Positions 22,384-25,586 of a DNA stretch of 28,160 bases are shown here, piece by piece. The translations under genes were made by a program, and so were the position numbers. Within the stretch, counting starts at the first letter, position 1; every line of letters begins with the position of its first letter. Origin of the DNA: a virus (Duplodnaviria; Heunggongvirae; Uroviricota; Caudoviricetes); the IMG/VR virus record IMGVR_UViG_2879765931_000002; one strand, written 5' to 3'. The notes beneath the pieces are model-generated. The model made no database searches, was not told the DNA's origin, and saw only the letters and a program-made list of their open reading frames with translations.

Positions 22384-24015
22384 ATAAACCGTGCTGTGTA
22401 ACTGCTGTGGATCAAATCTGACCACAACTTTTTTCACTCCGGCATTCATTAATGCCATGTTGTAATAAACGTTTTTCGCGCCTTTAAGGGAGCCGCCAAC
22501 TTTAAGCGTAAACTCGCCTTTGCGTGAAACGTTCACCGCCTCGGCAGGCAGTAACAGCATCCGTTTTTGTTCTTCGGTTGGCTTACGCACAATCGTTCTG
22601 GCGTATTCACGCTCGAAAACATCATCAAACGAGAGTTTGCCCCCGCACATTTCTGTTTCACGGCCTGTTCTGGCATTGAACATCGCCACACCTTCGGCAA
22701 AGGTTTTCAGAAACAGCTCTGCATCAACAGCGTGGTCGCCATAGTTATCAGGTTTTGCCTGCGGATTTGGCCCCGTATATGCGCCAGCCAGTGCCGGATG
22801 CTTATCAACGTATTCCTCAAGCCCACCAACACCGAAAGCACGTTCAACAGGTTTTGCCTGGCCCCAGCCTTTACCGGCAACAACGCTTGTCCAGTGCATT
22901 TTCGCACCCATCAGTAAAAACAGTCCTTTTGGATCGTCCTCTTTTACCTTAAAGCGGTAGCGATTGGGCGCGCCTCCCGTCAGCCATTTATTCGCAGCAC
23001 CACGGGTGTTATCAATGGTGATGTGAAAATCCTCCGGGATACTGTAGCGAGTCACAACATCCATGAACGAGAGGCGAATTGAATCAATGTTCTCGCTCAC
23101 ATCGCAGCGCCAGCCCAGAATTTTTCGGGTTTTCACATCCTGCCAGAACCATGTTTTCGGACGGATCACATCACCGTTAAACCAGCGTACAAAGACGTTA
23201 TGCAGATAACCGTCGCCGTTGATCCACTGCATGGCGTCCAGGTGTTCCACAGTTCGCTGCTGTGCCGGTATCAGATGCATCAGTGCATGTTCACCTTCAC
23301 GACAGGCAACAACCATTGCCTCGTCCAGTTGCTGAATCCGGCGAAAGGCCGTGGCACGGGAGGGAATACTCCAGCCATGCTCGCGGGCTGCCAGTTCCAG
23401 ACGCTCATAACATTTGCGGAAGGCGGGTTTTTCCGGTCGCAGATAATCTGCAATCAGAAACTGCCAGGCATCCTCGTCAAATTCACTTTTGTGAACATTG
23501 CGACGGGATGCTCCACGTCCATCAACAAGTGCAGCCGCCCAGTCAGGCTTCGCAAACTTCTGTACCTGGTAATACTTGTCCCGCAAAGTGGATGCGCTGA
23601 CCTGGTAATGCCCTGCAACGGTCGCAAAAGCCGTTTTCGTTGAAATCCCCTGGTTCAGCATTTCGTCTGTGGCCTGAATTGAGGGCAACCATTTTTCAGC
23701 CAGGCTGCGCTGGGAATCGCTGGCTTTATCCCATTTGCTCCATAGTGCCTCACGATCATAATCATGAGCTTCCAGCGTGGGGCGGGCGATTTCAAAACAT
23801 CCCTGACTGGTTTTAAATTTTCCTTGTTGGAGCAAAACTTCAGCTCGAGCAATGTTAGGAAGAGAAGATATATGGTATTCGTAAGCAACCCCTCTAATTC
23901 CTTCTCTTCTTCTCTTGAGCCATCCTTCTCTCTGAGCTCTTTTGTGAACCCCCATTAATGAACCAGGTAAACCAGATAAACCCATGCATTCAATTGCTGA
24001 TATCCACTCTCTCAT
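22384..24015 (-). pseudogene. A: Mu-type DDE transposase A, C-terminal ~120 aa replaced by IS600
   Basis: 544 aa. From residue ~70 ([23 protein letters not shown]...) onward it matches Mu A closely from memory; the first ~70 aa ([32 protein letters not shown]) are divergent. The stop codon is supplied by the IS600 end. Confidence 0.88.
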
Positions 24016-24226
24016 TGTGATCCCTTAGATATCTACTAGGCCAAATTTCCTCAGGTTTCATGTTTAAGGCGTCAGCAATAATGCGTTCACCTTTAGGCCA
24101 TGGCCTGACTAATGCATTTGCAAGCGTCCCGGTTGAATAACCTGAACGTCTGGACAATTTTGCCAGAGGGGTTCCTGTTTTTTTGAGGGCCGCAATCACG
24201 TCGGCCCGATGCCAATCGTTACTCAT
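23990..24226 (-). CDS. ner: Ner-like DNA-binding regulator (Mu ner / E. coli Nlp family)
   Basis: [19 protein letters not shown]...[33 protein letters not shown], the hallmark Ner motif; overlaps the A start by 26 bp. Confidence 0.8.
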
Positions 24227-24244
24227 CTTTCGCACACCAACCAT

Positions 24245-24397
24245 ATTGCGTATGATAAAGGGTTACCAAAACAAATAATTCGTCTTGATTATCTGTTTTA
24301 TACATTACCAAATAAACAAAACCGGTTTATATCAGTTAATGTGGTTTATTTTGTAATCCATTGATTTTTATATAGATAAATCTGGTAAACTTAGTTT
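24245..24397. promoter_or_regulatory. AT-rich divergent c / ner control region with repeated TTACCAAA and GGTTTAT motifs (candidate operators)
   Basis: TTACCAAA at 24263 and 24305; GGTTTAT at 24324 and 24343; inverted TTTACCAG at 24382..24390. By position this corresponds to the Mu operator region. Confidence 0.4.
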
Positions 24398-24907
24398 ATG
24401 AAAAGCGCAAATGAGATAAACCAGTGGATGACACCCAAACAAATTACTGAACTGGATGGAATGCCTGGGACAATACAGGGGGTGCATAAACGAGCAAAGA
24501 AAGAAGGATGGCCGAAGCGTTCACAAGAAGGGCGTCGCGGGCCTGGGGTTGAATATATCCCGGCAATACCGGCTATGCAAAAAATTGCTATCGAAGAAAT
24601 GAATGCTGATACATTGAAAATGTTCTCCCTGTTAATCAATAAACTAGGAGAAAATGAAGTCCGAGAGATAGAGCTAAACATGGCTAAATATGGGCTTTCC
24701 GGATTAATGCAAGAACGCCCCTCCATCTCCGTTGACACCCTATTGGCAACGCTGGGTATTGATCGCCAAACACTACAAACAGCTTTGGCGCTGCATAAAT
24801 TACCTCCAGAAACTCGCCAAGAGATTTTGTCAATGTATGGTGTTCATAAACAGGAAGAGCCTGTAGCTCCTTTGTTGGAACCACAAGATGCGAAAAAAGC
24901 CGTATAA
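24398..24907 (+). CDS. c: Mu-type repressor c-like protein (N-terminal DNA-binding domain shared with transposase A)
   Basis: N-terminus QWMTPKQITELDGMPGTIQGVHKRAKKEGWPKR parallels the A N-terminus ([33 protein letters not shown]); C-terminus ...ILSMYGVHKQEEPVAPLLEPQDAKKAV resembles the Mu c tail. Confidence 0.75.
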   Translation: MKSANEINQWMTPKQITELDGMPGTIQGVHKRAKKEGWPKRSQEGRRGPGVEYIPAIPAMQKIAIEEMNADTLKMFSLLINKLGENEVREIELNMAKYGLSGLMQERPSISVDTLLATLGIDRQTLQTALALHKLPPETRQEILSMYGVHKQEEPVAPLLEPQDAKKAV

Positions 24908-25071
24908 CAACCATGAGCCAGCTAAAACATACTTCACCTCACATAATCACACATGTAACATACCTAAACGGCATGAGCTGATTTGTGATATGAGTCATTT
25001 GGTGACAGCCTGGTTGTTATCGGTTTTGAACGTTTTTTGAAGCTATGATTGAAATGATTTATAGTGTTTTT

Positions 25072-25244
25072 GTTTTTCGTTTTTTCAATGAAACAAAAGC
25101 AATTTTTTACTATCTTTCGCGTTTCATTGGTTAACGCCTAAAATTTGTACTACAGGCTTGCAAGCCCCACCAAATCTAATCCCATCAGATCCCGAATAAT
25201 CCAATGTTCTCCCGGTTTTTTCGTACTTCAAGTGAATCAATACA
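25072..25244 (-). other. Mu-type left end (attL) with three transposase-binding repeats (L1, L2, L3-like) and 5'-TG terminus
   Basis: Revcomp contains TGATTCACTTGAAGTACGAAAA (L1), CGTTAACCAATGAAACGCGAAAG (L2), TGTTTCATTGAAAAAACGAAAAAC (L3). Confidence 0.75.
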
Positions 25245-25586
25245 CTGGGGCAAACGCTAACCCGTTTCCGCCAGCGTAAACATATGCTGGAAAGTATTGA
25301 TAGCGCCAGCCAGAAGCAAATTGATGAGATGTTTAATGCCTATGCTCGCGGTGAACCCAAAGACGAACTGCCGACCGGCATTGACCCCTTGACGCTAAAC
25401 GCGGTGCGAAAACTGTTTAAAGAGCCTGGTGTGCAACATACGGCAGAAACGGTGGCGCAGGCACTGACCATCAGCCGCACCACTGCCAGGCGTTATCTTG
25501 AATATTGCGCCAGCCGCCATCTGATTATTGCTGAAATTGTTCACGGCAAAGTTGGCAGACCACAACGCATATACCACAGTGGGTGA
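25245..25586 (+). pseudogene. dpiA: 3' fragment of dpiA (citB) response regulator, disrupted by the Mu-like prophage insertion
   Basis: From the first base after the Mu end the frame reads LGQTLTRFRQRKHMLESIDSASQKQIDEMFNAYARGEPKDEL...RIYHSG*, matching the C-terminal half of E. coli DpiA/CitB as I remember it; no N-terminal part in the window. Confidence 0.8.

Follow-up and report, generated by a model that had tools for sequence, protein, structure and literature searches.

An IS600-truncated Mu-family prophage end with divergent immunity genes interrupts dpiA in Shigella flexneri

The 28,160-nucleotide (nt) stretch of viral DNA analyzed here (IMG/VR record IMGVR_UViG_2879765931_000002, Caudoviricetes; herein referred to as the window) contains, at positions 22384–25244, the left 2.9 kb of a Mu-type phage, that is, the end of a defective Mu-family prophage, which lies within the regulator gene dpiA (citB) and is cut off inside the transposase gene A by a copy of the insertion sequence (IS) IS600. 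This stump is 2861 bp in size and is read on the minus strand from 25244 downward. We hypothesize, with a probability of roughly 0.9, that it derives from one insertion of a Mu-like phage in dpiA, followed by an internal deletion associated with IS600 and a later exchange between IS600 copies that split the two halves of the remnant. The data support ordinary genome decay, and the interpretation offered by the initial annotation of this stretch is upheld with small corrections.

Megablast alignment places nt 1 of phage Mu at window position 25244 and follows Mu homology down to 22384 (Mu nt 2962), where two extra bases, TG, are common to Mu and to the IS600 terminus, so that the position of the break is known only within 2 nt. 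On the other side, Escherichia coli chromosomal homology starts exactly at 25245 in 5,425 of 5,426 complete E. coli genomes, and none of the genomes in that collection carries the Mu junction at dpiA. By the annotation and sequence of strain IAI1, 25245 is nt 340 of dpiA and the first base of codon 114; the reading frame from there (LGQTLTRF...) runs to the normal dpiA stop at 25586, just as the initial annotation had proposed in stating that the dpiA frame resumes at the first base past the Mu terminus. A complete DpiA (CitB) has an N-terminal receiver and a C-terminal helix-turn-helix domain; here codons 114–226 alone are present, and neither the 5′ part of dpiA nor dpiB lies within the window. 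The sequence CTGGG at 25245–25249 is one copy of the Mu target duplication and the sole copy within the window. The features of the locus are as follows:

25245..25586, plus strand: 3′ fragment of dpiA (citB), codons 114–226 and stop, with the receiver domain (codons 1–113) absent
24908..25244, minus strand: Mu-type left end (attL), ~96% identical to Mu and 79–82% to D108 and SfMu
24398..24907, plus strand: c repressor gene, intact, 169 amino acids (aa), of a third immunity type N-terminally
24228..24397, no strand assigned: c-ner intergenic control region, with putative operators and divergent promoters by analogy with Mu
23990..24227, minus strand: ner, intact, 78 codons and stop, in an open reading frame (ORF) extendable to 24244
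22384..24015, minus strand: transposase gene A, cut at its 3′ side, codons 1–544 of about 663

Downstream of the dpiA 3′ part, dcuC and then pagP follow in their usual order. dcuC is intact in the window (25627–27012 core), but one S. flexneri genome (CP026772; locus L003, 7005–8389) has it as two ORFs; it is fragmented in the gene calls of CP178302 and largely uncalled in those of CP182547. A separate E. coli allele of dpiA (P0028, 93 member sequences) carries a frameshift a few bases from the Mu insertion point, in the part corresponding to dpiA codons 111–117; its 117-aa product ends ...KPIAYNGWGKR and is unrelated to Mu.

The left terminus is of the Mu type. It begins 5′-TGTATTGATTCAC... 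and carries three transposase-binding sites at Mu spacing, the 17-nt cores of which (L1, 25218–25234; L2, 25114–25130; L3, 25074–25090) fall at nt 11–27, 115–131, and 155–171 in Mu orientation, the same positions as in Mu, with zero, one, and two mismatches to the consensus, respectively; the A-run directly after L1 is one A shorter. The alignment runs from Mu nt 1 with ~96% identity over nt 1–345, and the lower figure for D108 and SfMu refers to alignable stretches only (D108 nt 1–358, SfMu nt 1–232). The three transposase-binding repeats and the Mu-type identity of the terminus, both called from the letters alone by the initial annotation, are thereby confirmed. Gene order is likewise that of Muvirus, with c toward the end, ner and A away from it, and Mu domain families in all three products: precomputed Pfam assignments for identical proteins in public genomes give HTH_Tnp_Mu_1 for c, HTH_35 for Ner, and HTH_Tnp_Mu_1, HTH_Tnp_Mu_2, DDE_2, and Mu-transpos_C for A. 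The c protein has an N-terminal winged-helix DNA-binding domain.

All three ORFs expected at such an end (an intact c, ner and the first 544 codons of A) were located, and the frame of A is closed by a TGA at 22381–22383 that the terminus of the 1264-bp IS600 supplies, so that the initial annotation had read both the gene content and the truncation correctly. The truncated A covers 469 of the 529 residues of the MuA 77–605 transpososome construct (4fcy), the last 60 being absent, and 298 of the 327 residues of the catalytic core (1bcm); it therefore lacks domain III entirely, together with the last part of domain II. In MuA, domain III-alpha is required for assembly and cleavage, and III-beta makes the contacts with MuB and ClpX. 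No Mu right-end sequence (attR) occurs within the window, and transposition competence takes both attR and a full-length transposase. Since the stump has only one end and an A cut at codon 544, the data support the earlier claim that it is unable to transpose, and it is inert as a mobile element. The intact c may still bind its operators and is the only part of the stump that could act.

Segment boundaries were placed by sliding identity and BLAST comparison with Mu, D108, and SfMu, and they divide the stump (in Mu orientation) into three parts:

nt 1–446: attL and the last ~36 codons of c; Mu-like
nt ~447–1400: the rest of c, the control region, ner and A codons 1 to ~60; unlike Mu, D108, and SfMu
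nt ~1400–2861: the remainder of the truncated A; 97–98% identical to Mu, D108, and SfMu

At the protein level, c is 35% identical to its counterpart in Mu, 28% in D108, and 30% in SfMu; Ner is 68%, 57%, and 56% identical, respectively; and the truncated A is 91% identical to each of the three, with its immunity-specific codons 1 to ~60 followed by a remainder that is 97–100% Mu-like in DNA. This bears out the earlier statement that A is close to Mu A past its N-terminus and that c, Ner, and the N-terminus of A are divergent. The initial annotation had further equated the mosaic boundary with the one that separates Mu from D108. This is true of the A side, where the divergent cassette ends inside A at about codon 60: similarity to Mu sets in again at Mu nt 1511, and that between Mu and D108 at Mu nt 1519, 8 nt away; the c-side boundary is a different one, because Mu-like sequence continues ~36 codons into the 3′ end of c. 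Nor does the label "Mu/D108-like" describe the immunity region, as c is not closely related to the repressor of Mu, D108, or SfMu; it is neither D108-like nor SfMu-like and belongs to a third type. The N-terminal domains of c and A resemble one another, as they do in Mu, and both have structural matches in the winged-helix folds of the Mu repressor and of MuA I-alpha, a likeness that fits joint exchange of repressor, operators, and the enhancer-binding domain of the transposase. The stump is a recombinant of a Mu-type left end, a third-type cassette, and a Mu/SfMu-type A.

Set beside Mu itself (NC_000929), the stump shares the terminus, L1–L3 and their spacing, a leftward c followed by ner and A, the 5-bp duplication, and close DNA identity on both sides of the cassette (97.8% over nt 1511–2962); it differs in that nt ~447–1410 are replaced, that c has 169 aa versus 196 in Mu, and that A is cut and the B gene, late genes, and right end are absent from the locus. 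D108 and SfMu are mosaics of the same kind, with a swappable cassette made up of c, operators, ner, and the first ~60 codons of A. The cassettes they carry are, however, different ones, the left end of the stump is much closer to Mu than to either, and the left boundary of the stump inside c also sets it apart from the D108/SfMu mosaic.

Relatives of this immunity cassette are few. It is absent from sequenced phage isolates, among which the best c identity is 36% (tblastn against phage records), and its DNA occurs in a single genome of the 5,426 complete E. coli genomes, that of UMNF18, where a full Mu-like prophage in yphC begins with it (c 85%, Ner 99%, and A 96% identical). Only ten c relatives were returned from a large protein collection, including those of Salmonella enterica (85–87% identical; loci L020 and L021), which likewise stand at the head of complete prophages of the Mu type. 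The UMNF18 and Salmonella prophages share with the stump the immunity type and a c of 169 aa; unlike the stump, they are complete, with B, kil, gam, mor, lysis and head genes, they occupy other chromosomal sites, and their attL-proximal 100–400 nt are only 72–80% identical to it. Because relatives are few, yet head complete prophages in UMNF18 and Salmonella, the third-type cassette is rare in nature but still alive there.

The other border of the stump is formed by two features:

21120..22383, minus strand: IS600, 1264 bp, with orfA at 22017–22319 and orfB at 21163–21981
20921..21119, plus strand: truncated STY1053-family gene, the other IS600 flank, belonging to the unrelated ipaH-island prophage

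This IS600 copy is 99.5% identical to RefSeq-annotated IS600 and is a bona fide member of the IS3 family, alike in size and in its orfA/orfB pair to the IS600 of Shigella. It differs in what flanks it: the flanking triplets are AAT and ATA rather than a 3-bp target duplication, and the element joins unrelated prophages. The STY1053-family gene follows the capsid gene of a prophage whose terminase is of PBSX type and whose portal and capsid belong to DUF1073 and DUF2184, respectively; an intact copy of this prophage stands beside ybhA in FDAARGOS_944 (between ybhA and tail genes), and the S. flexneri copy carries ipaH beside pgl. Because the duplication is lacking and the flanks come from different prophages, the IS600 at 21120–22383 is a recombinant joint of two prophages rather than a simple insertion. 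The earlier claim that the element ends abruptly at IS600 stands as regards the truncation of A, with the correction that IS600 is here the joint to the other prophage.

The initial annotation had also predicted that the right end of the prophage would be found beside the 5′ half of dpiA, flanked by the same CTGGG, and this is what we observe in related S. flexneri-type sequences. A viral-contig collection was scanned for TATGAACGGCTGGG directly abutting TGAAGCGGCGCACG, which returned three contigs; the right junction (dpiA 5′ part/Mu right end) reads ATTGCCTATGAACGGCTGGGTGAAGCGGCGCACGAAAAACGCG. In two of the three (L024 and L025) the left junction is present as well, the order being dpiB, dpiA codons 1–114, CTGGG, 4.13 kb of Mu right end, IS600, truncated A, ner, c, attL, CTGGG, and the dpiA 3′ part. 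CTGGG therefore adjoins both Mu ends in L024 and L025 as a 5-bp duplication, and the intact target in IAI1 reads GAACGG-CTGGG-GCAAAC. The right-end segment consists of part of S, then U, U′, S′, a 28-codon gin remnant, com, and mom, and in L024 it is 94.7% identical to SfMu nt 32618–37146. Translation through the right junction gives a 127-aa protein, DpiA(1–114)+GEAAHEKRESVSR, which has an exact match in the public protein collection, where it is annotated as S. flexneri DpiA.

This DpiA-Mu fusion is found on 699 contigs, and the A variant of the contiguous arrangement (R428/L439) on only 12, from which it follows that most carriers of the right junction would belong to the main lineage, the lineage of the window, with the two halves apart. 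A length of 4,834,597 bp is that of the longest contig for the contiguous-type A, the dpiA-Mu fusion, and the STY1053′-IS600 fusion ORF alike; if these contigs are a single genome, both IS600 copies predate the exchange. Contigs extending further were not recovered when the viral collection was scanned for the two Mu-right/IS600 joints or when loci were searched by way of Mom. Two apparent negatives were set aside. Loss of the dpiA 5′ half had been indicated by a degenerate 45-nt scan of species-representative genomes, in which S. flexneri-type genomes showed the left junction alone; it missed the right junction because a synonymous single-nucleotide polymorphism (SNP) of the S. flexneri lineage (AAGCCAATTG vs AAGCCCATTG in IAI1) lies inside the pattern. 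The failure of a homology search to return the fusion protein was likewise a false negative, the exact protein being filed in the cluster of full-length DpiA.

Several smaller changes mark the copies of this remnant. gin is cut to 28 codons in the S. flexneri Mu right half (3125–3211 of L023, the third contig; equivalent in L024 and L025), and the G segment is therefore frozen. An IS1 interrupts the tail-fibre gene S′ in L023, and another lies in attL of L025, near window position 25005–25016. The main-lineage A has H428 and F439 versus R428 and L439 in the contiguous-lineage copy (window 22696–22740 region), changes that would fit decay following inactivation.

The arrangement of the window is widespread. 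S. flexneri chromosomes that encode the exact truncated-A protein include 2002017 (CP001383) and NCTC1 (LM651928), the same arrangement is present in 8401 (CP000266), and 6,687 blocks of an assembly collection list exactly this c protein. All 18 sampled genomic contexts of the truncated A or c show the window arrangement, and the junctions recur at >99.8% identity in another 19 S. flexneri sequences that share it, so that neither chance nor assembly error explains them. Across the 3.2-kb region, 0–5 positions differ among 20 genomes. Given the uniformity of the 18 contexts and this low divergence, the Mu insertion is both old and fixed in the main S. flexneri lineage.

We therefore favor the following history as an account of these arrangements. 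A Mu-like phage, whose attL was of Mu type, whose immunity module was of the third type, and whose transposase and tail-fibre genes were of Mu/SfMu type, would have inserted once, between codons 113 and 114 of dpiA, in an ancestor of S. flexneri, duplicating CTGGG. An IS600 presumably inserted in gene A, and ~30 kb between A codon 544 and the tail-fibre gene S would have been lost, with IS600 at the deletion joint, leaving an 8.3-kb stump with both ends. This ancestral state would survive in the minor, contiguous lineage represented by L024 and L025 and by NCTC strains (SUI49377 and SUI94063). In the main lineage, exchange with a second IS600 in the ipaH-island prophage would have parted the halves, such that the window holds the left half only; the path would need excision and reintegration or at least two inversions.

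Four points weigh against this history. A single inversion as a model for the IS600 joint was rejected because the late genes of the ipaH-island prophage and the dpiA 3′ part are both K-12-forward. Persistence of the right half in the genome of the window itself is deduced from contig counts. L024 and L025 are provirus excerpts from draft genomes, in which a misjoin across IS600 is formally conceivable, although their assemblies agree with one another and share lineage-specific SNPs. Lastly, the Mu-right/IS600 joint of L023 lies 261 bp from that of L024, and at least one more event must therefore have occurred.

The alternative that survives best, though we regard it as improbable, is that the stump has been kept because it is useful, with c conferring homoimmunity or silencing Ner and the truncated A, and with the control region under selection. 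The c-ner control region bears on this. Relative to the contiguous lineage and to the prophages of UMNF18 and Salmonella, the main lineage shows there a 9-bp deletion after 24306 along with substitutions at 24266, 24319, 24322, and 24338, all within 73 bp, and only two shared substitutions in the rest of the Mu DNA (~2.8 kb). Position 24318 is variable within the main lineage, and among 20 main-lineage genomes 5 of the 11 variable sites fall in 24310–24338, that is, in 29 bp of the 3203 bp compared. This clustering is strong, and 24266–24338 is a mutational hot spot. A consensus promoter scan of the contiguous lineage finds two ner-facing promoter-like sites, TTTATA-17-GATAAT and TTGATA-18-TATGGT, and finds none facing ner in the window; the deletion appears to have taken out the first, and the substitution at 24266 to have weakened the second. 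Both c-facing promoter-like sites are kept in the window. As consensus matches, these calls suggest loss of the early promoter in the main lineage, and this one-sided loss speaks for retention of c, as do the listing of the exact c protein in the 6,687 blocks and the placement of the two c-gene SNPs among the 20 genomes, both of which affect third codon positions (one, when checked, proved synonymous). However, the lineage is young and near-clonal, such that an intact 510-bp gene is expected by chance; the promoter calls are consensus matches only; and the hot spot overlaps a quasi-palindrome, AAACCGGTTT (24319–24328), and a tandem GGTTTAT motif, which are mutation-prone even without selection. 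No expression or immunity data were found in the literature, and no Rfam family was detected in 21000–25700.

A fuller version of the same idea, to which we give slightly less credence still, holds that the stump is not inert: c would serve as a domesticated immunity gene against homoimmune phages of the Mu type, selection would have reshaped the c-ner switch (the 9-bp deletion and clustered substitutions abolishing the ner-facing sites), and the receiver-less DNA-binding domain of DpiA may be expressed by read-through from the c promoter.

We judge it very unlikely that the stump is a remnant of SfMu itself, the known Mu-like phage of S. flexneri. A 2015 study of SfMu read Southern bands common to most S. 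flexneri strains as SfMu remnants, which were left unmapped (PMC4406740), and the right half in L024 and the A gene past about codon 60 (97.8% identical) are indeed close to SfMu. In the left half, however, c and Ner are far removed from their SfMu counterparts, attL over its first 230 nt shows 82% identity to SfMu versus ~96% to Mu, and a polymerase chain reaction for SfMu c-ner was negative in every strain but the SfMu host (PMC4406740). For the left half, we regard an SfMu origin as refuted by these comparisons. There is next to no chance that truncated A, IS600, and the ipaH-island prophage were falsely joined by assembly across a repeated IS, a reading that at least four IS600 copies in the window would invite, since repeats provoke misjoins, but that is refuted by independent assemblies, the same joint being present in 18 sampled genomes, mostly complete chromosomes from differing laboratories and technologies (including 8401, 2002017, and NCTC1).

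The window to the left of the IS600 joint (1–21119) is a remnant of the ipaH-island prophage. An IpaH-family type III effector E3 ligase gene stands at its left edge (1–1812), and the same ipaH adjoins pgl in strain 2002017. The four IS600 copies of the window lie at 2611–3874, 4801–6037, 7298–8561, and 21120–22383; the second has an internal deletion of ~25 bp (IS positions 476–500), and an exonuclease VIII fragment (4175–4819) between two IS600 copies is in the opposite orientation to that of the native prophage. An IS nest occupies ~8560–11620 and ~14040–15370, where matching E. coli records annotate IS2, IS911, and ISSfl11-like elements, and a second IS2-like ORF pair separates the large-terminase fragments at 13269–14060 and 15349–15888. 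In 2002017 (locus L014, CP001383 917712–938356), the ipaH/exo/Rha part (window 1–9000) lies ~205 kb from the Mu stump, such that a further IS-mediated rearrangement, one end point of which lies in the IS nest, distinguishes the strain of the window from 2002017.

We found no paper that links dpiA or dpiB to Shigella or that describes the stump. The understanding of Mu and of IS-driven genome decay is unchanged by these results, and their practical value is modest: the dpiA::Mu junctions and the IS600 joints provide a precise, lineage-defining marker for S. flexneri. The insertion accounts for the loss of the DpiAB citrate-sensing regulator in S. flexneri, and it provides a Mu remnant mapped at base resolution that may explain part of the 2015 Southern signal, with a left half that is not of SfMu type. 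The complete prophages of UMNF18 and Salmonella show that at least one further exchangeable immunity cassette is carried by Mu-family phages.

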